DNA of 64,000 bases from Hydrolagus affinis (lineage: Eukaryota). The stretch spans positions 1-64,000 of the forward strand of contig JAAILG010000006.1 in NCBI GenBank assembly GCA_012026655.1, given 5' to 3'. Shown here one piece after another: positions 5,490-62,400 of the stretch. The notes under the pieces were generated by a model. The model did not search any database. It was not told the DNA's origin and saw only the letters and a list, made by a program, of their open reading frames with translations. Position numbers and translations under genes: made by a program. How positions within the stretch are numbered: position 1 is the first letter of the stretch; each line of letters begins with the position of its first letter.

Positions 5490-5649
5490 AAGACTGTTTG
5501 TGGGGCCACTGCTGTGTGCAATTGGCTGCCGCATTTCACCCACAAATATAGTCAATTCACTTTATAGTCTATTCTGTGAAGCGCTTTGAGACGTCTAGAA
5601 GATATGAAAAGCGCTATATCAAATGCAAGGATTATTATTATTATTATTA
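5490..5649 (+). mobile_element. 5'-truncated tRNA/L2-tailed SINE (3' half)
   Basis: gactgtttgtggg...aattggctgccgc...gaagcgctttgagacgtctagaag...aaatgcaaggattattattatt. Confidence 0.9.
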
Positions 5650-5719
5650 GTTTGTTAGCTGACTTTGGCCACCACACCTGGAGAGAGGGTACAGATTTTT
5701 TCTCTTTTCTGTAGTATTA

Positions 5720-5895: not shown

Positions 5896-7239
5896 CAGAT
5901 CGCCCAGAATCTGGCAAATTTATGAATTGAGTCTTAATTTTGAAGTCAGCTTTCCGTAGGTCAAAGAAGAATTTACGAGCAAGACACAAAGTACTGCAGA
6001 TGCTGAAAGACAACTGGCTTCAAAATACAGCCATATTTCGAATGTATCAAATTCTGGATGCTGCATTATGTTATGGTTAATAAAGTTAGACTTAGGTGCA
6101 ATCGTTCCAACACATGTGTTGGTGCCATTGGTTTACCCTTGTAGGTACTGGAAGCCCGTTTCAAATACACACAGCTCTGAATGGTAAACTTCCATTTTGC
6201 GAGGTATTGAAAAGATTGCTGTGTTAGCAATCAACAGAAATCGATCCCTGCGATGACTTGCTAAAAAACACACAAAAACAACCTGCCTCCAAAGTATGGG
6301 TAATACTGTTGGAAATCAGTGGGTAGTAATTTAGCAAGAGTGTGTTGGTGCCACTTTGATTTTTAAAGCTTAGGACCCGATATAAACATTGCTGTCTGCT
6401 GCCCTTGTGTGTTGGACTCTAAACTGAAGAGAATACTTTTCTCTGTGTGGTCAAATGCATTGACCAATAATTATAGCATACATAACGGAAAAATGTGTAT
6501 GTAACTGGCTGCAGAAATCTGAGATTGAAGGGCTGCCATTGTATGTTTTGGCTTCAATTTAGTTGTGTTGAAGGCTCATTGCAGACTATTAGAGCTTTGC
6601 AGGATATTAGATAATATCTGTCCTTTGCACTACAACTACAAGTTGCTAATCTTCATGTTGTTTCCTTTTTTCAGAGTGCACCTAATGCCAAACACTTCTG
6701 GCTATCTTGTCACACAAATTAACAGATAGTAATAAGACACAAATTGAGAATGACTCTTGTAAGTGCTCACTGCTGTGTACTCAAGTATTCTCAGTGTTTG
6801 ACATTGCAGTGCAAACCACTTTGGATCCTGCTATCTCTGTAAATACTGAAGAAAGATGGAGAGTAAATACGTGGATCTGTGGAAGGACATGCCTCAGTGA
6901 TCAAATCATTGAATATTTTTACAATGATTGTTAAGGACTGTCTCACAAATTTGATTGAAATCTTATTATTAAGATGTTGTGTCTCCAAATAAACAACTTC
7001 TGTCAACATTGTTTCCTCAGATATTTAGAGATTAGGGTCAATAGACCCTGCGTATGATTTTATTTTCAGAGCAGTTCCTTAAAAAAAAGTGCTAGTTATG
7101 ATCCTTTTCACATGTCTTACTTACGTATCAGTTATTCATTGGATCCAAATAAAGTGAACCTACAAATAATACTTTCGCCTCATTCCAACGAGCATGCTTT
7201 TGTTTGCTCTGTTCGACAATTATGAGTCAAGCATCTTGT

Positions 7240-11459: not shown

Positions 11460-11703
11460 TTCCCTTTGGAACTCCATCCCACAGTCCCTCCACCTCGCTC
11501 CCTCCCTCCCTTACCTCCTTCAAGGTCCGTCTCAAGACCGTCCTCTTCAACCGTGCCTTTGGTCACCCTCTTACACCCACCCTTCCTGCCCATCCCTCCT
11601 GATCTCTATCAACCAGGGAAGGTCCAAATCCCTGACTGTTCAATGCCTTGGGACGTACTCTCAACGTGAAAGGTGCTTTACAAATGTAAACTGTTGTTGT
11701 TAT
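11460..11703 (+). mobile_element. LINE-2 3' end (ORF2 terminus, 3'UTR, (GTT)n tail)
   Basis: LWNSIPQSL..SFKVRLKTVLFNRAF motif (frameshifted), stem-loop gccttgggacgt..acgtgaaaggtgc, tail ctgttgttgtt. Confidence 0.9.
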
Positions 11704-13529
11704 TCAATTTTGTTTTACATAACCTTGGACAAATTGTGGCAGTCTAAGCTAATCTGCTTTCTCAAGCAGTAAATAGCTTTGACATGAGAAACAGTTTAGT
11801 CTCTCAGCAGCGAACCGATGATTGCTCCTGCTGCTTAAATGGCACTGTTAATCTGCTTGTGCTGTATCTTCTCTCCCTTTGTTATATTTCTTCATGCGTT
11901 TTTAGTAGAAAAAAGAAGTCTGGGGTCATTGCTGTGGTTATTTATTTGTTTTCCCCTCCCCTTGGTCTTCAGATTGCAGTCTGAAATAATACAGAATAAA
12001 TCTCTATAGAGTGCAAATTATTTAGTTCGGAGGTAACAGTAAAGAGTAGGCTATGTGATGATGTTGTGACATTTGTCAATTATACTCCTTATCCAGCACT
12101 CTTCCATTTCAAGAGGACACCTCAAAGTGCTTCTTCATAGGCTATGCTGTGAAGTGCGGTGACTGTATTTTGGAGGTTAACGTCTACCCGCATGTTAATT
12201 CACTTAGGTGTAACATTCACTTTGAGCTAGAACCATGCAAGCAGACATGCAAAGAGAATTACAGTTTGCCTTTTTGCGATTTACAATGAATAAAAAGGAT
12301 TTTTTTGGTGGTGTTTTGAAGCAGCAACACTTCAGACAATCTGTAATAATCACGTTATATTGCTGTGTTTTGGTATTTCCCAGTGCTATTTTGAACTTTG
12401 AAACATTGAAATACTGGGTAGCATTTCAAATAATAATAATACTAAACTTTGCAATTCATACGCTGCCTTTCATGTCAGGTGGATATCTCAAAGCGCTTCA
12501 TAGGATCTTACTGTAAAGTGCAGTGACTGTATAATGTAGGCAAATATACTGCTCCTTTCCAGAAATATATCTGATGATAGAGTGTCTTACATCGTGATGA
12601 AAACAGGAGCTTGGAAAATATTGCTAAAGGGTCTTATGCACCTTTTAACTAAGCTGAGGAATTTTTGCTTCTGTCCCAGATTTCAAACAGAAATGTTCGA
12701 GAAATAATTCTGAACGTTCCACTCCAGACTTTTCTTTCACGTCATTTTTCTTAACATTTCCCTTAAGAACTATAATTTATATGCTTCACCTTAGCCAGAA
12801 GCAATGCTGACTTTCTGACTGTCCCAAGGGTTTCGGTGAACTTTAATCCCAAAGAGAATTATAAATGTTGAGCCCTTATGTTATGATGCATTATTAAATA
12901 CAACTTTAATCAATCCTTTTCCCCCATATTTCTACCATGACTGTGAATCATTTCAGTTTCACATTTCTAGCAGAACTCATTCAAAGGCCGAATAAATATT
13001 TTGGAACATGCTGTAGCTCGAGCTATGTTTCCTATAAACATTTTACCTCCTACTCACTCATGTGATGACGAGGTTTCTGCAAGGTTCCCTGTACCAATAT
13101 CATCCCTTGACTTTGGATGAAAAAATACTCTCAGCACAATCATAGGCACATTCTGACAGGTTTGTTTTGTGTTTGCATGTTTAAAGGATAAATAATGGTT
13201 AACAGTAGTTTGTTGGGAAGTGATAATACCAATAATAATTAATAATCTTTGGATATTTATATGGTGTGTACCACATTGGGAGGGTATCTCAAGGCATTTC
13301 ACTCAATATGTGAACATTGTTTTTGTTTCCAGGGGCTTCTGAAATGACTCTTCCCAAACCCACAATTTTCGTTTCTCTCAAGATCCATGTTAGGGCACAG
13401 TTCTGCAGATCTAAACATCTCTTCAATACCTTTTACCAAGATGTTGTCCATCATTTTTTAGTCTAGACGTTCAGGTTTGTTCTTTCAGTCTATTCTTTTG
13501 TCCCTTCAGTCTTTTTCAGTCTAAAAATA

Positions 13530-17482: not shown

Positions 17483-17785
17483 GAGTCTTGTAGCTCAGTG
17501 GTTAGAGCACTCGCCTTAAAAGAGAGAGGCCTGGGTTCTATTTCAGGCAAAGTGAAATCTTGGGCAAGTTTCCTTACTCCACACATCCAGTAATAATCCC
17601 TCAAAAAAAACAATAACTAAGTGGTCATTTCAATCCACAACTGTTTTTGGGACACCGCTGTACGCAATTGGCTGTTGTGTTTTGCCATCATATATACAGT
17701 CAATTCACTTTACAGTATATTCTGTGAAGCGCTTTAAGACGTCAAGAAGATGTGAAAAGCATCAAATGTAAGGATTATTATTATT
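17483..17785 (+). mobile_element. Full-length tRNA-derived SINE (CORE-like segment, Deu-like 3' body, L2 tail)
   Basis: A-box tagctcagtgg, B-box-like gggttctattt, cttgggcaagtttcc, aattggctg, tail aaggattattatt. Confidence 0.92.
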
Positions 17786-17845: not shown

Positions 17846-17906
17846 ATTTGTCAAATTCTGTATGCTGTAAAATGAAGTAAATCTAGACCCAGGTTAAATT
17901 TTATCC
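17846..17906 (+). repeat. Arm of the TCTAGA palindromic element family
   Basis: atttgtcaaattctg...aaaatgaagtaaatctagacccagg. Confidence 0.55.
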
Positions 17907-18043
17907 TGCTCTGGCAAAGGGTTGTCAACCCGAAATGCTGACTCACTTTCCTTTCTCCATAGATGCTGCCTGACCTGCTGAGTGTTCCCAGTGATCTCTG
18001 TTTCTGCTTCAGATTTCCAGCTTCTGCAGTATTTTGCATTTTT
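17907..18043 (+). mobile_element. Single arm of the Penelope-like hammerhead-bearing element (degenerate)
   Basis: ctggcaaagggttgtcaacccgaaatgctgactc...gatgctgcctgacctgctgag...gcagtattttgc, homologous to 34327-34570. Confidence 0.8.
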
Positions 18044-22260: not shown

Positions 22261-23266
22261 TATGTTTATCCTATCTATTTAATCTAAAATGAGCCTAAGG
22301 TTGTCCTTAAACCAGCTAGCTGGGAAAAACCTAACACTCTCTTTCCCGCTCCCCTCCCCTTTGTAAACCTCTGAAAGTGGAAAAGATGATCTGTTAGCTT
22401 TTTATTCACAGTGCGTGTGATTGATGGGACCCACCTCAGCTAAGTATGAAGACAATCTCATACCTTAGATAGCTAACTGTTTAGTGAATGTGTTGCCTTC
22501 TTCCACAATTAAAAAGGCCCAGGTCTGTAGCTGACTCTTCTGAAGGGATATATACTCCATCTTCCGATTAACTAGCTGGCTTTACTGTAATAATCTAATT
22601 GATGTTTCATTGTCCACGTGACATATTCAAGAGGTGCTCCCTCAGATGAACCTTTTTCTCCACAACCTCAGTGTGAAAACCATCATTCTAGCATCCGACA
22701 GACAATCCAAAGTTAATTACAATAGAAAAAAATTCAGTGCAAAGGCTAAGAGGTTAAGATTCTTGAACATCAAAAAAAAACAGGACTGAAAACTTTCTCG
22801 AGGAAAGGAAGGCGGACAAATCTACTTTAGTGTGAATCACGTGCCTTGGCAGAAGAGCTCATGATGAAAAGAGAATGCCCGTTCCCGAAAGGCACTCGTG
22901 ATGGGAAGTAAATGAGCTTGAACAGTATGCGAGAAAGACATTTAAATTTGGCTGCTTAAAAAATCCCAATTGATTTGAGATTGATCGAACAATTAATGAC
23001 CTACACAGGACTAACTGCAGCAGATACAATCAGATCTCTTCACTTGTTCATTTGTCGTATTAAGGAAGACTGTTGTAACAAATGAAAGTAGTGAGAAATG
23101 AATACTTTCATTCGTAATGAAACAAAGCATGTATTTTATATAATGATCTGTGTTGCCTGAAATTCCCCTGGTTATTCTGAGTTTTAGTGACTTAGTGTCA
23201 CCTGGACAGATAATAATCTGAATCAACAATGTACCAAAATCAACAATGAAAATCAGCGACTGAATA

Positions 23267-23615
23267 TAATAATAATAATCCTTGTATTTGAAGTACTTTA
23301 GCGCCTTTAACATCTTCTAGACATCTCAAGGTGATTCACAGAATATACTGTAAAGAATATACTATATAACTGATTGTATATTTGTGGGCAAAAGGTGGCA
23401 GCCAATTGTACATAACAACAATAACAAAAATTACACAGCAGTGTCCCACAAATAGTTCTGGATTGAAATGACCAATTTTTTTAAAAAAAATTGAGGGATT
23501 ATTATCAGGTGTGTGGACTAAGGAAACTTGCCCAACGGTTCACCCTGCCTGGAATTGAACCCATGTCTTTCGCTTGTGAGGTGAGTGCTCTAACCATTGA
23601 GCTACAGGACTCCAC
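23267..23615 (-). mobile_element. Full-length tRNA-derived SINE
   Basis: Tail aataataatccttg through head gagtgctctaaccattgagctacaggactccac, with a small (AAC)-rich insert at about 23413-23432. Confidence 0.92.
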
Positions 23616-28255: not shown

Positions 28256-28304
28256 AACTTTGTCACTTCATTGCTAGAGATTAGATGCTTCCTGTAAATA
28301 TATC

Positions 28305-28588
28305 AATAATAATAATCCCTGCATTTGATACATTGTGTAGCTGACGTCTCAAAGCGCTTCACAGAATATACTGTAAAGTGAATTGACTGCATATATGTGG
28401 GCAGCCAATTGCGCACAGCATTGTCCCACAAACAGTCGTAGATTGAAACATGACAATTTTTTTTGGAGAGATTATTATCAGGCATGGAGAGTAAGGCAAC
28501 TTGCCCAAGGTTTTGCCTTGCCTGGAATTGAACCCAGGTCTCTTGCTTGTAAGGCAAATGCTCTAACCACTGATCTACAGGACTTCAC
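28305..28588 (-). mobile_element. Full-length tRNA-derived SINE
   Basis: Complete tail, body and head (gaattgaacccagg...ctctaaccactgatctacaggacttcac). Confidence 0.93.
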
Positions 28589-29927
28589 AAATAGCCACTG
28601 ATGGCAAACACGTGTTGGATGTGGTTAGTATGCTTGCTGTAGATCAATTGTAAAATGAATAATACTATAACTACCTTTATCACAATGGCCTTGGGTTCCA
28701 AAAATCAGCCACTCTCTTGTTACCAAGGACAGTAGATGAAGAAATTGCTGTCCCACTTGTGTAGCTGAGTATTTTATGCCTCTTCAGATGTCAACAATCA
28801 TTTCTGGAATGATTGGATCAACAAAAGGATTCCAATTGGGGAGGAGCTGGGGAGTTCAATTACAGATCTGCCCAATTCTGTGATGGGGCTATCTGTACTC
28901 TGAACACCACTGCTAATCTTTCTGTTTTTTTACAACCTGAGAATCAATAAACCGGCAATGTATGCTTCATCCCTGTAAAGTATCATTGCATTTGTGATGT
29001 ATCTGCAGGATAGTGGGAACGAATATTTATACAACAGGCATTTTAATAAATCATGTCTGATGAAAAGATCTCACTAGAGGCCAGTGTGTGTGTGTGTGTA
29101 TAATATGTGGAGATCATACTTTTTTTAAAATCTGAAAGGCAATTTAGAACGTGATCGTATCGTATCTGGAAATACAATCCTACTCCTCTCTCCTGCTGCA
29201 AATCTGTTCCTTTCAATTGGTTTGTGGCAGTCTGGCCCCATCGATCAGTGGCCATATGGGATCGAAAAGGTGGATGGATTGAGCTTTCTCTGCATCATTA
29301 GGTTTGTCGGGATGAAATCCGACAGTCTTAAAATGACCTCGCTTAAGAAGGCCACTCATTTATGTTACCAGAGAAAAACTTAAAGCATCCCCCACATAGT
29401 TGAACACTATAATTCTCCTCCTCACCCACTATTAGGCACAGTGATCTCGCCATGGGTGGTCTCAGTGCTTCATTTGATTCTAATAGTGTATGAACACACT
29501 CTTCACTTCCTCAAATAGGTAATTTGCGACATGCTGTTATACACATCAGGGTCTAATTTGCCACATTTCTTAATAAGAAATGTCTAATTATTGAATCCTT
29601 AATGCATTAAATATGCTGAGGAATATGCAGAAGGTTCACAAAGCCATCGCCGCTGATGTTTCAGGAATTTGAAAATTATACTTATTAAGGAATATTTTAA
29701 GACGTATTGCATATTGGACCCCATCACAACAGAATCATGGAAAATCTCAAACTCCTATTTATATGAAAGTGGCCTCTTTATTGAAAAACATTGTGCAAAA
29801 CATCGTAAAATATGCTTCAATTTTTAAAACAGTGATGAAACATTTATACTGATTATAACTATCAAGTACCTGTGTAAACCTTATATAAATAAATTAATTC
29901 TATGTAATTCTATATAATTCTTTCTGG

Positions 29928-33800: not shown

Positions 33801-34425
33801 AATTGAAACATACACTTCTGTCGACCACATGTAGTGAATCCATGTACAGTTTGGAAGAACAAACCCTTTCCTTTAATCTCACAGAACCTGGTGAGCTAAC
33901 AGCAATTTATAACATCAGCAGAATTTGTACTTGGTCCAAGAGGGGACAGATTATAGCATTAATTGGCAAATCATCTCGGAGCTTCACAACTATGAGCCCA
34001 GTAGTTTGAAGATACTCTTTAATACAGAATACTGATATCTTTAACTTACCAGCAGAAATGATGCAATTATTGATTTTGTGTATAAACCCTTGTGAAAGGT
34101 CCAGGTCGTCTTGCGAGGCAAGTGATCGACCCACTAAGCTACAGGACGCTATACTGTATATCAAATTCAGTCTCTTACTGATTCTCACAATCAAATTGTC
34201 TGCATTGTATCATTTTGCCCATTATATTCTATGAAGTGCTTTGAGATGTTCTCCCAACATGCAAGGTGCTGCGTCACAAGTAAGGATTATTAAAAAAGGG
34301 ATTTTGTCAACTGTGAATAAGATTGATAAAACACAAAATACTACAGATGCTGGGAATCTGAAACAAAAACAGAAGTTGCTGGGGAAACTCAGCAGGTCAG
34401 GCAGCATCCATGGAGAAAGGAAAAA

Positions 34426-34463
34426 GAGTCAACGTTTCGGGTCTACAACCCTTCGCCAGAACA
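34426..34463 (-). ncRNA. Minimal hammerhead-ribozyme motif (core variant CTGGCGA, probably impaired)
   Basis: Reverse strand gtt-CTGGCGA-A-gggt(tgtag)accc-GAAA-cgtt-gac. Confidence 0.55.
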
Positions 34464-34468
34464 GCACA

Positions 34469-34506
34469 TGTTCTGACGAAGGGTTGTAGACCTGAATCGT
34501 TGACTC
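34469..34506 (+). ncRNA. Minimal hammerhead-ribozyme motif (core variant GAAT, probably impaired)
   Basis: gtt-CTGACGA-A-gggt(tgtag)acct-GAAT-cgtt-gac. Confidence 0.55.
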
Positions 34507-34664
34507 TTTTTCCTTTCTCTATGGATGCTGCCTGACTGCTGAGTTTCCCCAGCAACTTCTGATTTTGTTTGTGAATATGATTGAAGTCTCTTCATGATGA
34601 GAGAAATGGAGAGGATCAGGGCAATGTAGAGAGTTCAAGATGCAGGGAATGTCAGAGATGGATC

Positions 34665-34732
34665 AGAGTGAGAGAGAGACAGAGAGAGAGACTGAGACTC
34701 ACAGAGTGAATCAGAGTCACAATGAGAGACAG
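34665..34732. repeat. (GA)n-rich simple repeat
   Basis: Directly visible. Confidence 0.8.
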
Positions 34733-36710
34733 AACTAATGTTGATTTTAAACTTTGAAACCCAAACCTCCACTGAAAGCTTTATTTCGATTATATTTAGA
34801 TACAGAGTGCATGAATAGATGATGCAACGGGAAATTGTATTGCACATCTAGGATAATGCAGTGCCCTGAGTTTAATGCCCTTTATTAAATATATATAATA
34901 TATATATGTAATGCTCTGTGCACTAAGATGCTGGTGTATGCATTAAGAGAATCTGATTTAAGAATCAGACATGTTTGTACATCAGAGGATGCAGATGAAA
35001 TTGAGATTATTTGGGGCTAACACAACAACAGTTTGGTTCTGTACAAGTTTTTACCTTATCAAAAGATCTCTAGAGGAACCATCACTCTAAAACCATTAGC
35101 TCAGTTATAGGCAGGTTCAATGTTAAATAACATTCAATTGGTTACAGGCTCAATCTGGGTCACAATGCTGACAGAACTTGAAAACATCTAGATTATTGTC
35201 CTTTGTGCTGTGTGATAAAATGAAATTACCCTTTATTCTGCCTCCTGTTAATCTTGCTTTAACCCTGTTTGGTGGTTTTAACAGGCATCGATGTGAATAC
35301 AGTATATTGTTCGTTAGAGAGCACAGGATCTTACACTGCCTGATCTCAAGGTGGTTTGAAAGTTGGAAAGATATACTTTGAATTGAAAGTTCTCGCACAT
35401 TAAAGTTTAAAATGCTATTTACATCTCAACATGTACCTCTTGGACCATGCTTTCGCTATCTTGCCCACCTCATCCACTTCAGCTCTGATGCCCAGCCAGA
35501 ATTGGCAAATGCTTTGGGATGTCTGCCAGACATGAAAGTCAACATGAAAGTCATTTATGTGTAAACTGTATATTTTTTGTATTGTAAGAAGCAACTCTAT
35601 TTGTTCCATTTTAGTCGTCTATTGTCCTTCACACATTCACAACTAACCAAAGTACAAAAGATTGGCATGGAATAATAGTTTTCCTTCTCCTAATTGAAAT
35701 AGTGCATTGGCTAAGTTATGAAAAATTAGCCTCTAGGATTAGATATATTTTTAGAATCTTTCTTATTTGAACACTACAAGTTGATAACAATGCTAAATAT
35801 TAGAGCCAGACAGCTTTATTGGAAATGTGTCAAAGCAGAGGATTAATTCTGTTTCTCAGTAGTTTGACTCTTTTGGTGCCCTTATTAATTTTAATGGCAC
35901 TTTAACTGGGAGGAGAGGTTTGTTGCCGCAAGGGATTCATAAGAATGTAACCCAAGAAAGCATGGAGTTCATACTGTATTCCAACATAGACTCTATCCTA
36001 ACTGTTTAATCCTCTGAGGAGAGGTTTTACATGATATCTCCAAGCCCGCCACCTCCTCCGACACCCCACACTCCCCTAGTGTAAATCAAGGCAATGCTGA
36101 TATTTATCTAACCTTCCATTATGAGTTATTCCTTTTTAACCACATGCCTGTCTTGGTATGACTTTTCTCAGCAGCTCTGGAACCATTGTACAACCATAGA
36201 GGATTTATTCTCTGCTTTAAATTCTGTATGAAAGCCTTAGTCTTGTTTATAATGCAAACAATCTTCTTTGAAGGTATTAATGCTTCGAGTGCCGGAAAGT
36301 GAAATGGGGAACACTATCTTTGCGGGCTGACCATTTTGCATGTTTATGTTTCCAGCACACACAATATGGCAGGATTTGTTGAGGAAGGGGTGAAAGCCAT
36401 CTCACTGGATTACGTCGTATTTAATTTTCAATGCAAATGTGTTGAATCTTTGGATTTTAAATGCTTTTCCAATAGCTTTTCAATAATCTGTAAATGGCTT
36501 TTCCAAATGAAAGGTGTATATACTATGGTAATATCAGATGCTCAAAATGTGAATGATAGCCAGAACTGACTTGAATTTGCCAAGAGCTAGTAAATAGCAC
36601 AAGGTTGTGAATCAGTTTGAGTCATTGCAAAGGTAAAAAAATTGGGCATCCCTGCATTGCCCTGAGCTATGACCTGTAGCCAGCAACTGAGTCTGTGAAA
36701 GAGAACAGAG

Positions 36711-37949: not shown

Positions 37950-38640
37950 TCAACTGCAAAATTACATTTGTATAGCGTCTTTTGCATCAGGAGGACGTCC
38001 GAAGGCACTGGACAGTCAGTGTTTTGGACCTGATCTGGGGTCAGGATCGGAGAGGATGAAGGGAAGGGTGGGAAGTGGTGGTGGGGGAGGAGGGCGTAAC
38101 CGATGGTGCGGTTGAAGGGTTGGAGGGTCTTAATAATAATAATAATCCTTGCATTTGATATAGTGCTTTTCACATCTTCTAGACATCTGAAAGTACACAG
38201 AATATACTGTAAAGTGAATTGACCATATATTTATGGGCGAATGCGGCAGGCAAATGCGCACAACAACAGGGTCTCCAAACATTCATGTTTCAAATGACCA
38301 ATTTATTATTGGTTTTTTTTGAGAGATTATTATTAGGCATGTGGAGTAAGGAAACTTGCCCAAGGTTTCGCCTGGAATCAATCACAGGTCTCGTGCTTGT
38401 AAGGCGAGTGCTCTAACCACTGAGCTACAGGACTCCATGTCTTGAAGCGGGACTTGCGGGAGGCTATGGAGGGAGCAAGGCAGAGGGCTTGAAGGATGGA
38501 ATTCCAAAGGTTGGGGGCAGAGTGGCTGAAGGCTTGCTCGCCGATGGTGTGGGGGTAGGTCGGGGCACATGGAGCAGGCTGGTGCCACTTAGCAGAGGGA
38601 ACAGACAGGTTAGTAGGGGTTAGGAGGTCACAGAGGTAAT
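37950..38640 (-). mobile_element. LINE-2 3' fragment split by a SINE insertion
   Basis: Tail and UTR at 37950-38131; ORF2 end HTIGEQAFSHSAPNLWNSILQALCLAPSIASRKSRFKT at 38439-38640. Confidence 0.9.
38132..38438 (-). mobile_element. Full-length tRNA SINE nested in L2, with 5-bp TSD GTCTT
   Basis: GTCTT at 38127-38131 and 38439-38443; complete head and tail. Confidence 0.9.
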
Positions 38641-45090: not shown

Positions 45091-45923
45091 CCAGTAATTT
45101 TTGATGTGCACGCCGTCTGAGAAAGAAACATTGAAGAGACTTATGTGAATCACCAACCAAGTCCAGGCACAACATTGGAATAAATCTGGAAAATCATAGT
45201 TTTATATGCAAATAGGTAACATCTGGTGAGCAAAAAAAACTCAATGGTTCAACATGATCGGAATAATGATTTCTTTAATCTCTGGGGAACTGTAGGTTAT
45301 GCAGCTAACCTCCCATAATCAATTTGGATATAAAGGATGCTCTTTGATCCTGGCATTAGTCAGAGCAAAGAGATAATGCGATCTTTTTTTCAAAAGAAAA
45401 AAAATACAAACATGCTTGAGTTTTGCAGCGGGTTGAATCAGCATCAGAAACGAATGGCTGATCTATTATCTGGTGTGTGAACATTCTCCATTAAAGCACC
45501 CCAGGACGCTGACCCGCTGTATAAATGCAAGCTGTTGTTGTTGTTGATGATGTTGTCATCATCACTGGGGTCCCTTATAGCAGACTGAGAAGCTTGACTC
45601 AGACCAAGAAACAGACAATAGGAAGTTGATTAAAACTATGTATTCCTCAGAGAGCTACATCGCTCCTTTAATCTATCTCTTTTTAAAATCAGGTGCTGAT
45701 TGACTTGTTCTGTGTTCCTGTCCATTTCAGATATCCTGCATTCCCAGTTTTTCTCATGTCAAACAATGTGACTTACACACTTGATTCATCCGCAGTATTT
45801 TGCGTTTTTGATTCATCTGCAGTTCAGCCCCTGGCTAGTATATTCTGTGCTAAGTTTCTTACAATGTCATTCCATCCTCACTTATTTAGCCTTATTCTTA
45901 GCAAGGCAGCAATTCTGTGAGTA

Positions 45924-45992
45924 ATCCCTGACTGTTCAGCGGCTTGGGACGTCCTCCCGACGTGAAAGTCGCTTTACAAATGTAATTTTGTA
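45924..45992 (+). mobile_element. Short L2 3' terminus
   Basis: ctgactgttcagcggcttgggacgtcctcccgacgtgaaagtcgctttacaaatgtaattttg. Confidence 0.85.
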
Positions 45993-46047
45993 CAGTACTG
46001 TATTGTATTATCCTGGGAGAGCAAAGATCAAGCGTTAAGCCATTGCC

Positions 46048-46378
46048 AAACAACAACAACAACAACAATTTAAACTTATAAAGCACCTTTCACGTCGGGA
46101 GGACGTCCCAAGGCGCTGCACAGGAGGCGTGTTACCCGAGCTGGGAGGGGAGTGTTCAGGAAGGGGTGAAACATGTGGGGGAGGTCGAAAAGTTTGGGGG
46201 TAAACAAAAGGCACGGTCGAAGAGGAAAGTCTTCAAACCGGCCTTGAAAGAGGAAAGGGAGGAAACAAGGCGGAGGGATTGGGGGATGGAATTCCATAGG
46301 GTGGAAGCGGAGAAACTGAAGGCCCGGCCTCTGATGGTGGGGCGGTTCGGGTGGGGGGCTTGGAGCAGGCCAAGTCTT
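46048..46378 (-). mobile_element. Young LINE-2 3' end
   Basis: ORF reads LGLLQAPHPNRPTIRGRAFSFSASTLWNSIPQSLRLVSSLSSFKAGLKTFLFDRAF; (CAA)n tail. Confidence 0.95.
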
Positions 46379-56427: not shown

Positions 56428-56861
56428 AGGAGGGTTCAATTCAAGATCCTTGTCCTCACCTGCAAAGCCCTCCATGGCCTCGCTCCCACTACCTCTGTGA
56501 TTTCCTAACCCCCTAGCAACCTGCCCGTTCCCTCTGCTCTGGCCTGCTTCACATCCCCCTGCCTTGCTCACCCCACCATTGGCGGGTGGGCCTCCGGCCA
56601 CTCTGCCCTCACCCTCTGGAACTCCATCCCGCAGTCCCTCCACATCGTCCCCTCCCTTGCCTCCTTGAATCTAGATGCATCTCAAGATTGACCGTGCTTT
56701 TGACCGTGCCTTCGATCACCCTCCTTCCCCCCGTCACTCCACCCTCCCCAATCCAGACCGCCCCCCCCACCCCAGCTCAGGTCTGAAACACTGACTGTCC
56801 AATGCTTTGGGACATCCTCCCGACATGAAAGACACTGTATACATGTGGTTGTTGTTGTTTG
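56428..56861 (+). mobile_element. LINE-2 3' fragment
   Basis: RVQFKILVLTCKALHGLAP..YLCD, LWNSIPQSL, stem-loop and (GTT)n tail. Confidence 0.93.
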
Positions 56862-58993
56862 TAAACCTTTCTTTGTGAGCATTCACCTCTGGGGAGTGAC
56901 AAGAGGCAGCTTATGAAATAATGAGAAATGTTGCTTTCATCTTTAATATACAAACCAACCACATGCATGTATTGATTGCTATAATGTGACAGCAATGTCA
57001 TGTGAATAAATATTCGAAGAACAATATAAAAAGGCATGATAAGAAGAGCAGAGAATTGGGATTAAATGTATGTACATTGCAGTGAAGGAACTAGCACCCT
57101 TTTATGATTGAGGATGAAAATTGACTCCCGCTGAGCTGAACCTCTAGTTCTGTGAACGCATACAATGTGGCACATGGGAATATTTAGATTGTTTTGCTTG
57201 TGATGAAAGCCTCCCCAACTCAATCATCCTCTGTGAGGTGTTATGCTACCATTACCAGCTAGGTGCATAGGTAGAGTACACTCTGTTCTCTATCATATCC
57301 CAGTTGTTAATTCTTTGGGGGTATATGTGTGTGTGTGTGGCCTTTTCACTTCTGAAGGAATCCCTGAGAAGAGAGAGAATGAAGAATGTCTCGCTGTCTC
57401 ACTGTATTCCTTCCTGCTTTTAAGTTATGACTTGATATGAGTGAAAGAGCGCTGGTCTCTGGTGACATATTTTGTTTATTCCACAGGAATCAATGCTATC
57501 TTGCTGCCCGTGAGAGACAGGATTTTAATTTAATTGTAAAATTCTAGGTGTGACTGCCAGCCAGCAATTGAAAATTTACACAAGTAAATTATCATATTTC
57601 TGTTCCACTAATCTGACGTATCGCTTCATTGGGCACAAACAACATAGTCACTCCCATAGAATGAGCAGATGCCACTATATTGGTAAGGATGCCTTGCCGG
57701 CTTTATTATACCAGCCTTAGAGAGTCCAATAATTCATATGCTTTGGCATTTTTGTTTTGCAAATATGTTATTTTTTGAGAGGTGGAGGTGAAGGGAGGAA
57801 TTCTCGCTGAGACGAATGAATTGCTTTTGGCCAGAGACAGTGGAAAATAATAGTAAAGGGATCAGCAGCAAATACAAATACAAATACACTCAAGTGAATC
57901 AACTGTGTCTTCGTTCAACATTCTAATTTAATTATGGAAATGCAATCACTTGAGGAGCCATAGGATCAACTTGGGGCTCACTTAACTCAGAAATGAAACT
58001 AAGGAAATTAAACATTCAGAGTCGTGCTCCCTGACTGAAAGCAAAGAATACCAGCTGATGGGCTGTCTGGGGAATTCTAAAATTGTTCGACCTTTGCCTC
58101 CCGGCTACAGATGAACAGTTCCTACTTGGCGCTGTGCCAAATCCGGAAAAAAAACTCCGCTATTTTATGATCACAAGCAGTTGCTCCCATCTAAGGCTGG
58201 TAATGAAATAAATCGGATCAAAATGCACACTTAGTTCTTATCATTACAAACTTATGGTGACTGTCAAAGTTGATCTCATCATGAGTTTTACAATACAACC
58301 AATTGTTCTCCTGCGCTTTTTAAGTATTTTGAGATTAGGGTGTGCTATTATGACTTTGTGCTCTGTGGTTATAATGAGGTTTGACTTTACTTACGGTAAT
58401 GTGTTATTCAACACACACAGTACGTTTCTAGGCAAAGGCCAAAAATATATCTCAACTCCTCGGTAACAGAGGACATTAACTGTAGGACATTAGCTCCCAC
58501 TTCAATTACAGGCAAGGAGCTATCAGGATCCAGAAATCCCAATTAAAATCGAGTAACATTTGAAGCACAAAATCTGTGTAGAATCCCAGAGTTATATTTG
58601 TAGAAATTGATTAAGTCATTATTTTACGACGAGCACAATAATTCACCAAATAACATTGTGTGAGAGTAGATGGAGTGATCTGTAACGTTAACACTCCATC
58701 AGGTTGTGTGAAGTCGATTTATTTGGAATATGTTGAGTGGTTTGTTCAATCTACATTTTAGAAATAATTGAAGTTTACTGACACCAAACCATTTTGACTC
58801 AACTTTCATTCTCACCCCGCTGGCGTGATGCAAGATGCTCCCTGGTTCTTCATCCCATCAGAACATGACTTCAAACAAGAAATTTAAAAATGGTTCAGCC
58901 AACGTAAAAACTCAGTTCATGATGTGCAAAGAGTTTTTATTGCTGTGTAGCGTGTTTCACCGTTGCTACGATTCATCCGGTTTGCTGCGCGTG

Positions 58994-59056: not shown

Positions 59057-59240
59057 TAATTTTATAAAATATTATCTGGGATTCTACACAGATTTTGTGC
59101 TTCTGTTGGTCATTGCTGCATTCAGATTGGTTCCTGAACACTATACAATCACAAAACAGTGAGTCTCCTGAAGTGCTACAAGACATCTTGATGATGTGAT
59201 AAGATGCCACATCAAATGCAAGCATTATTATTTATTATCA

Positions 59241-59562
59241 TAATAATAATCCTTGCAGTTGATATCGCGCTTTTCACATCTTATCGACGTCCCAAAGCGC
59301 TTCACAGAATATACTGTAAAGTTAATTGACTGTATATTTGTGGGCGAATCGCGGCAGCCAATTGCACACAGCAATGTCCCACAAACAGTCGTGGATTGAA
59401 ATGACCAATTTTATTATTTTATTATTTTTTTGGACGGATTATTATTATTATTAGATTGTCTAAGGTTTCGCCCTGACCTGCCAGGATTCGAACACAAGTC
59501 TCCCCATCTTGGTCTCCCCTGCTTGCAAGATGAGTGCACTAACCACTAAGCCACAGGAGCTC
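59241..59562 (-). mobile_element. Full-length young SINE (14-bp head-duplication subfamily), tail-to-tail with an older SINE tail (about 59165-59238)
   Basis: Complete tail, body and head; duplicated units at 59498-59511 and 59512-59525. Confidence 0.93.
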
Positions 59563-62058: not shown

Positions 62059-62400
62059 GTGGAGCTCCTGTAGCTTAGTGGTTAGAGCACTCGTCTTGCA
62101 AGCTGGGGAGACCAAGCTGGGGAGACCTGTGTTCGAATCCAGGCAGGTCAGGGCGAAACCTTGGGCAAGTTTCCTCACTCCACACGCCTAATAATAATAC
62201 GTCTAAAAAATACCACAATAATAAAATTGGTCGTTTCAATCCACGACTGTTTGTGGGACATTGCTGTGCACAATTGGCTGCCGCGATTCGCCCACAAATA
62301 TACAGTCAATTCACTTTACGATACATTCTGTGAAGCGCTTTGGGACGTCGATAAGATGTGAAAAGCGCTATATCAAATGCAAGGATTATTATTATTATTA
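62059..62400 (+). mobile_element. Full-length young SINE (14-bp head-duplication subfamily)
   Basis: A-box tagcttagtgg 62071-62081, B-box gttcgaatcc 62131-62140, perfect duplication caagctggggagac at 62099-62112 and 62113-62126, CpGs retained, (TTA)n tail. Confidence 0.95.

Follow-up and report, generated by a model that had tools for sequence, protein, structure and literature searches.

Penelope-like elements (PLEs) leave insertions of a recognizable anatomy. According to PMC3846280, a typical Penelope insert carries an adjacent inverted copy of its pseudo-LTR (pLTR), mostly head-to-head, with a 31-bp tail on one pLTR and a target site duplication (TSD) of 8 to 10 bp, and the same anatomy is stated in PMC8969392. 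The tail is given as 30 to 40 bp in PMC8557442, often at one end only, while palindromes at the head-to-head junctions and the occurrence of solo pLTRs are described in PMC3846280. Metazoan PLEs also carry a minimal hammerhead ribozyme with an extra base between positions 9 and 10.1, a G10.1-C11.1 pair, a palindromic 15.2-16.2 and no helix III, and dual PLE hammerheads lying 100 to 700 bp apart on opposite strands have been noted (PMC4209133). Cleavage by PLE hammerheads is weak even when they are intact, and takes place in dimers or with the help of protein (PMC4209133, PMC11167929, PMC6765202). As for the enzyme, both strands are cut and extended in vitro by the PLE protein of the anole, which prefers ATT; its reverse transcription begins at either of two internal sites, located downstream of the hammerhead and delimiting the tail (PMC11167929). 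Every vertebrate examined in PMC4350176, among them the elephant shark, has PLEs, and retrozymes have been reported in the one chondrichthyan covered by bioRxiv 10.64898/2026.07.22.740005.

Fold-back PLE architecture is, in other words, already published. For the repeat family described here we found no paper among those listed for the Penelope, hammerhead, shark, chimaera and fish literature, a search of papers rather than of Repbase and Dfam; the supplements of PMC4209133 and bioRxiv 10.64898/2026.07.22.740005 may list the family.

The locus lies in a window (the whole stretch of DNA analyzed) of 64,000 nt. It is a 244-nt insertion made of two head-to-head copies of a repeat unit inside a TSD of 14 to 15 nt. 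Its parts, together with a solo copy of the unit elsewhere in the window, are as follows.

34312..34326, no strand: left copy of the TSD (14 nt from 34313, or 15 nt counting the T at 34312)
34328..34360, minus strand: optional 33-nt tail, confined to the left arm; the family has two common 3' ends, one of which is the outer end of this tail
34361..34464, minus strand: left arm, a pLTR-like unit with the element sense on the minus strand
34428..34462, minus strand: minimal type I hammerhead motif of the left arm, with A6G; predicted cleavage after 34431
34464..34468, no strand: head-to-head inversion junction of 5 nt (34464 also closes the left arm)
34469..34570, plus strand: right arm, a tailless pLTR-like unit that terminates at the second common 3' end of the family (the equivalent of 34361)
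34470..34504, plus strand: minimal type I hammerhead motif of the right arm, with A15.1U and C11.1U; predicted cleavage after 34501
34570..34584, no strand: right copy of the TSD (14 nt from 34571)
17906..18042, plus strand: solo, non-inverted copy of the arm unit with tail, 84% identical, with a decayed core and a 5' start shared with the arms

The arms (34361-34463 and 34469-34570) are identical in 97 of 103 aligned columns, with five substitutions, one indel and a 5-nt spacer, and they fold into a hairpin of -187.2 kcal/mol (z = -24.6) that none of 200 shuffles equaled. A short palindrome occupies the hairpin centre, and the head-to-head orientation was assigned from the sense of the hammerheads. 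The two copies of the TSD, at an AT-rich site, match at 13 of 14 positions (34313-34326 versus 34571-34584), or at 14 of 15 with the preceding T (34312-34326 versus 34570-34584). One of 3,000 random pairs with the same spacing scored equally high, and that draw may be the locus itself. An exhaustive scan of 15-mer pairs (1,593,200 pairs at spacings of 246 to 270) gave 20 matches, which were the TSD and 19 overlapping ones from one SINE-tail pair near 5618-5650. The near-perfect inverted arms of ~100 bp around a 5-nt loop and the 14-bp TSD reported in the initial annotation of this locus were both recovered, but it had overlooked the 33-nt extension of the left arm (34328-34360), which is unpaired, has no counterpart on the right and renders the insertion asymmetric. 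ATT stands 3 nt upstream of both junction 3' ends (n = 2) and likewise at the solo copy, numbers too small to test.

We read the insertion as derived from a PLE because an inverted pLTR, a one-sided tail of 30 to 40 nt, a TSD and a minimal hammerhead make up the published signature of these elements, and the locus has adjacent inverted pLTRs arranged head-to-head, an optional 33-nt tail, an AT-rich TSD and a hammerhead within the pLTR. An origin of PLE type is very likely when a truncated end and a discrete non-autonomous unit are taken together. With moderate confidence, we favor the former, that is, a dead-on-arrival pLTR end truncated from an autonomous PLE. The complex insertions of endonuclease-positive PLEs (PMC3846280, PMC8557442) share with the locus the inverted head-to-head arms, the tail at one end, the TSD, the AT-rich target and the existence of solo copies; they differ in that no ORF remnant is found here between the arms and in the size of the TSD (14 to 15 nt versus 8 to 10 nt in Adineta). 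In layout, the unit also resembles PAc, a Poseidon element of Anolis carolinensis (PMC11167929), in which the hammerhead is likewise followed, some 90 to 125 nt on, by two alternative ends that bound a tail, with ATT at the junctions. Measured from stem II, the 3' ends of our family fall at 91 and 124 nt, versus 111 to 118 nt for the main site of PAc; the ORF of PAc starts at stem II, whereas here the same frame meets a stop within a few codons in each of the three copies. Several points count against a PLE origin: no RT or GIY-YIG ORF was found linked to the arms in the window or among the protein matches, no Rfam hammerhead model matches, stem II has no compensatory change in the three copies, the TSD exceeds the 8 to 10 bp of rotifers, and there is no empty site among the 15 listed of 184 joints (see below).

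Like the minimal hammerheads of metazoan PLEs (PMC4209133), the motifs combine CUGANGA and GAAA boxes with an extra base before stem II, G10.1-C11.1, a palindromic 15.2-16.2 and no helix III. The Schistosoma examples in the same source are larger; here helix I has 3 bp and helix II 4 to 5 bp, the cleavage triplet is GUU, and both genomic copies are mutated. Considering the arms and the solo copy, helices I and II are paired in 23 of 24 cells, with a two-sided change in none of eight pairs (three copies only). The fifth pair of stem II is seen as U-G, U-A and C-G, a pattern that CpG decay could produce. A descriptor of the minimal type I motif, allowing one core mismatch, retrieved exactly the two arms in the 64 kb, and all 30 dinucleotide shuffles came out empty; it was composed with the motif already known, and shows rarity rather than independent discovery. 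The looser CUGANGA...GAAA pattern occurs six times in the window versus 5.2 expected, which is the chance level, leaving the structured descriptor as the informative one. Covariance models, the check suggested in the initial annotation, did not back the hammerhead: no Rfam hammerhead family matched in the window at the gathering threshold, and none was among the 12 matches at E ≤ 10 in 34200-34700. Such a miss would be expected from a motif without helix III.

The mutations themselves appear unremarkable. That the two motifs are mutated differently had been noticed, and A6G on the left and A15.1U on the right are both present, but C11.1U in the right arm, a CpG-type change, had been missed, and nothing is special about the difference, since three of the six differences between the arms fall inside the 35-nt motif (P = 0.33, no enrichment). 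A concentration of arm differences in the ribozyme was accordingly rejected. Changes at A6 and 15.1 lower hammerhead activity, as shown for A6C and U15.1-A16.1 rather than for the exact changes found here (PMC3088659). In the predicted fold of a read-through RNA from either strand, stem II forms with a probability of only 1e-17 to 1e-19, and by this prediction both ribozymes should be masked by the long hairpin. Because the motifs occupy opposite strands, no dimer is possible within one RNA. With mutated cores, opposite strands and burial in a 103-bp hairpin, neither ribozyme of the locus is predicted to be active; transcription of the locus, if it occurs, would yield ~100 bp of dsRNA.

The family to which the arms belong was surveyed in the Logan contigs of 4 of 20 sequencing runs (X1, X9, X12 and X14, from four organisms and four studies), aligned to 34100-34800 at 80% likeness. 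It is very abundant, with 21,914 contigs in X1 and a summed depth of up to 4.3 million versus 47.6 on the unique flank, a figure that is not a copy number; the ratio of summed depth to that of a unique contig, from 1.6e4 to 9e4, likewise measures abundance and not copy number. In all four runs, A6 is intact in 95.0 to 99.2% and A15.1 in 97.4 to 98.5% of the family depth, so the core change of each arm is private. These depths bear out the intact minimal-hammerhead consensus (CUGANGA...GAAA) that had been proposed from the two arms, and the hammerhead core (C3-A9, G12-A15.1, U16.1-H17) is complete in the family and in neither genomic arm.

Among the 24 of 1,299 rows listed, loose contig ends piled up at 34328 in three of the four runs (560 contigs in X1, 104 in X9 and 397 in X12) and at 34361 in all four (208 in X1, 36 in X9, 182 in X12 and 129 in X14); smaller peaks stood at 34334, 34362 and 34365. 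Beyond 34328 and 34361 the sequences are dissimilar AT-rich flanks (agreement of 0.38 to 0.43). The two peaks point to a family with two main alternative 3' ends 33 nt apart, and the locus uses one of them at each copy of its TSD.

Only 0.2 to 1.3% of the depth at 34456 carries on over the hairpin centre, and the left arms of other fold-backs come in at least 12 different lengths, with cuts between 34349 and 34433. Variably cut left arms were joined to one right-arm start, ~34468-34473 or equivalent, in 7 of the 15 listed joints and in 7 of the 12 listed joint inserts. The joints are mostly single contigs stemming from other repeat copies and were used as evidence on those copies; one X1 contig holds the unique flank and 24 nt of the element, too short to serve as a bridge. 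Given the variable arm lengths and the scarce depth over the centre, the hairpin was likely formed anew at every insertion, and is likely a product of insertion and not a mobile unit. The solo copy at 17906..18042 has a candidate TSD of 7 of 8 matching positions (score 5), which was equaled or beaten by 220 of 3,000 random pairs and is not significant. Short matches to the tail end of the family were also seen at 5981-6008 (minus strand) and 45787-45808 (plus strand), at 86 to 88% over 22 to 25 nt; their extended alignments score 54.5 and 52.5 versus a random 99th percentile of 50, and they are possibly old copies of a related family.

The alternative closest to our preferred reading is a discrete, non-autonomous SINE-like family of 100/135 nt with its own short transcript starting at helix I, which would be copied in trans by a PLE enzyme and inverted at insertion; it amounts to the idea of the initial annotation minus the fold-back and retrozyme parts. 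The solo copy and both arms begin within a few nucleotides of one position, and 5' ends look clustered at helix I rather than randomly truncated, which fits such a unit too. Depth in X1 also drops from ~210,000 at 34456 to ~2,500 at 34463, the loose ends at 34462 (among the 24 of 1,299 rows listed) are long and dissimilar (agreement of 0.39 to 0.42), and non-autonomous PLE derivatives that share terminal sequence are known (PMC8557442; bioRxiv 10.64898/2026.07.22.740005). However, the majority line of the 34462 loose ends opens with the same nine letters in all three runs that list it, so some copies appear to enter a shared upstream sequence, and if reverse transcription began internally on a full-length PLE mRNA, close to its 5' end, this would, as can be extrapolated from PMC11167929, yield the same short product of fixed length. 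We regard the non-autonomous family as rather unlikely on balance, yet as the one competitor of real weight. Slightly more doubtful is the broader proposition that cartilaginous fishes harbor a huge family of 100/135-nt hammerhead-headed mini-retroposons with a 5' end fixed at helix I, be they strong-stop products of internal reverse transcription or a PLE-dependent SINE, whose fold-backs record twin priming by a dimeric PLE enzyme. If true, thousands of fold-backs, each using one start site per TSD copy, would constitute a genome-scale record of twin priming and would settle how the inverted junctions of PLEs form.

The remaining explanations have far less to recommend them. A MITE or fold-back DNA transposon, with terminal inverted repeats that resemble a hammerhead by chance, would also be short and non-coding, with long inverted arms, a flanking direct repeat and many copies. 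Its repeats should be symmetric against the TSD, though, and here the ends differ by 33 nt; moreover, the arm exists solo, about 1% or less of the depth passes the centre, arm lengths vary (at least 12), and the common DDE superfamilies leave TSDs shorter than 14 to 15 nt. We consider this origin very improbable, and the asymmetry, the solo copy and the variable arms sustain the earlier preference for a Penelope type over a DNA MITE. No more credible is a solo copy that gained its second arm later, when DNA repair produced a local inverted duplication: in its favor are arms that differ by just about 5 to 6% and a short palindrome at the centre, but both arms lie within the TSD and the right one stops exactly at the second 3' end of the family. 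The least probable of all is a non-LTR retrozyme propagated as circular RNA through double hammerhead cleavage. Animal non-LTR retrozymes (PMC7229834; bioRxiv 10.64898/2026.07.22.740005) resemble the locus in being non-coding, in their type I hammerhead and in their likely kinship with PLE pLTRs, and their TSDs are longer than 4 bp (PMC7229834), but they are tandem repeats with canonical type I motifs, a type marked by loop-loop contacts, whereas the motifs here have a helix I of 3 bp and no helix III. There is no tandem array of the arm unit in the 64-kb window, and the motifs of the locus are minimal, on opposite strands, mutated in both copies and masked. Of the initial interpretation, what survives is thus the Penelope type and the intact family core; the retrozyme-like character is not supported, in view of the missing array, the strands and the stem II probabilities, nor is the fold-back as mobile unit, in view of the depth over the centre, the diversity of arm lengths and the existence of solo copies.

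Returning to a truncated PLE end, we infer the steps of its insertion that go beyond geometry. A PLE RT/GIY-YIG protein would nick both strands of an AT-rich target ~14 to 15 nt apart, and each 3' end would prime reverse transcription on element RNA at one of two internal starts, the left cDNA beginning with the tail site and the right one at the inner site, without tail. Both cDNAs would halt at about helix I of the hammerhead and then be joined head-to-head. The arms would initially have been near-identical, with an intact core, and would since have drifted about 5 to 6% apart by neutral decay, while the hammerhead may serve the RNA of the parent element, acting as a dimer or with the help of protein. 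We lean slightly towards this twin-priming route, which would explain the orientation, the one-sided tail, the TSD and a right arm that ends at a family end. A single cDNA snapping back on itself has a lower, though still appreciable, probability; it would explain the inversion, but less easily the second end. The origin of inverted PLE junctions is a matter of debate between self-priming, with snap-back on an antisense template favored in PMC3846280, and the priming on both strands seen in vitro (PMC11167929), and of the papers listed that join Penelope with twin priming none concerns PLE mechanism, judging by title. An abundant family with two sharp 3' ends permits a direct count of the types of inverted PLE junctions.

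The search for a partner gave no RT or GIY-YIG domain. None of the 131 peptides of at least 75 aa in the window had a Pfam match above cut-off; viral contigs had no match to two arm patterns, and plasmids none to the arm. Six metagenome loci, all of 60 to 67% GC and with only 21 to 26 nt of similarity, were rejected as chance, and one locus in prokaryote genomes, with 11 matching residues, was judged likewise. Translations of the arm had no protein match in one search, five in another and 3 among 2,256 candidates in a third, and no RT or GIY-YIG domain was among these matches, in collections that are mostly microbial or consist of context-less predicted proteins and cover animal genomes poorly. 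Two of the five, P0004 and P0008, are of repetitive sequence and appear to have no relation to the arm. The arm translations do match peptides in gene models of Scyliorhinus torazame and Heterodontus francisci, which makes a cartilaginous fish the likely source of the window. In four of them (P0006, P0007, P0009 and P0011), the arm or tail is translated in shark models, namely a Scyliorhinus hypothetical protein and Heterodontus PIKfyve-like, RNF14 isoform X2 and CPAMD8, which represents either mis-annotation or exonization of the repeat.

The locus is probably an ordinary, inert retroelement stub. Hairpins of this kind mimic MITEs or microRNA precursors and are a hazard for annotation: 5 of the 12 sub-threshold Rfam matches over the arms are miRNA hairpins, which score below the gathering threshold and reflect the hairpin only.

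Two putative splice acceptors were seen in the unit. A pyrimidine tract followed by CAG lies at the border of arm and tail (34358-34375, minus strand), and in the majority line of the 34462 loose ends AG stands directly before helix I. Both placements recall Drosophila virilis Penelope, which has an intron ending at helix I (PMC4209133).

The window has a GC content of 34 to 43% and is rich in a tRNA-headed repeat. This SINE-like family, of ~330 nt with an (ATT)n tail, is represented at 17484-17785, 23266-23614, 28297-28593, 38131-38437, 59237-59562 and 62062-62398 as well as by many 3' fragments, one of which, near 34220-34292, lies just left of the insertion; the three Rfam tRNA matches are heads of this family. 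A second dispersed repeat of ~250 nt and ~70% identity (11462-11704, 46055-46301, 56612-56859, 37957-38094 and 45932-46123) is probably the 3' end of a LINE and includes an inverted pair (45932-45988 and 46067-46123). At 56780-57061 (minus strand), a MOZ/SAS Pfam match of 20.5 bits versus a cut-off of 32.2, with no PDB match, is either chance or a decayed pseudogene and assigns no host gene to the window. Finally, a short palindrome at 59193-59280 consists of two SINE 3' ends placed tail to tail.
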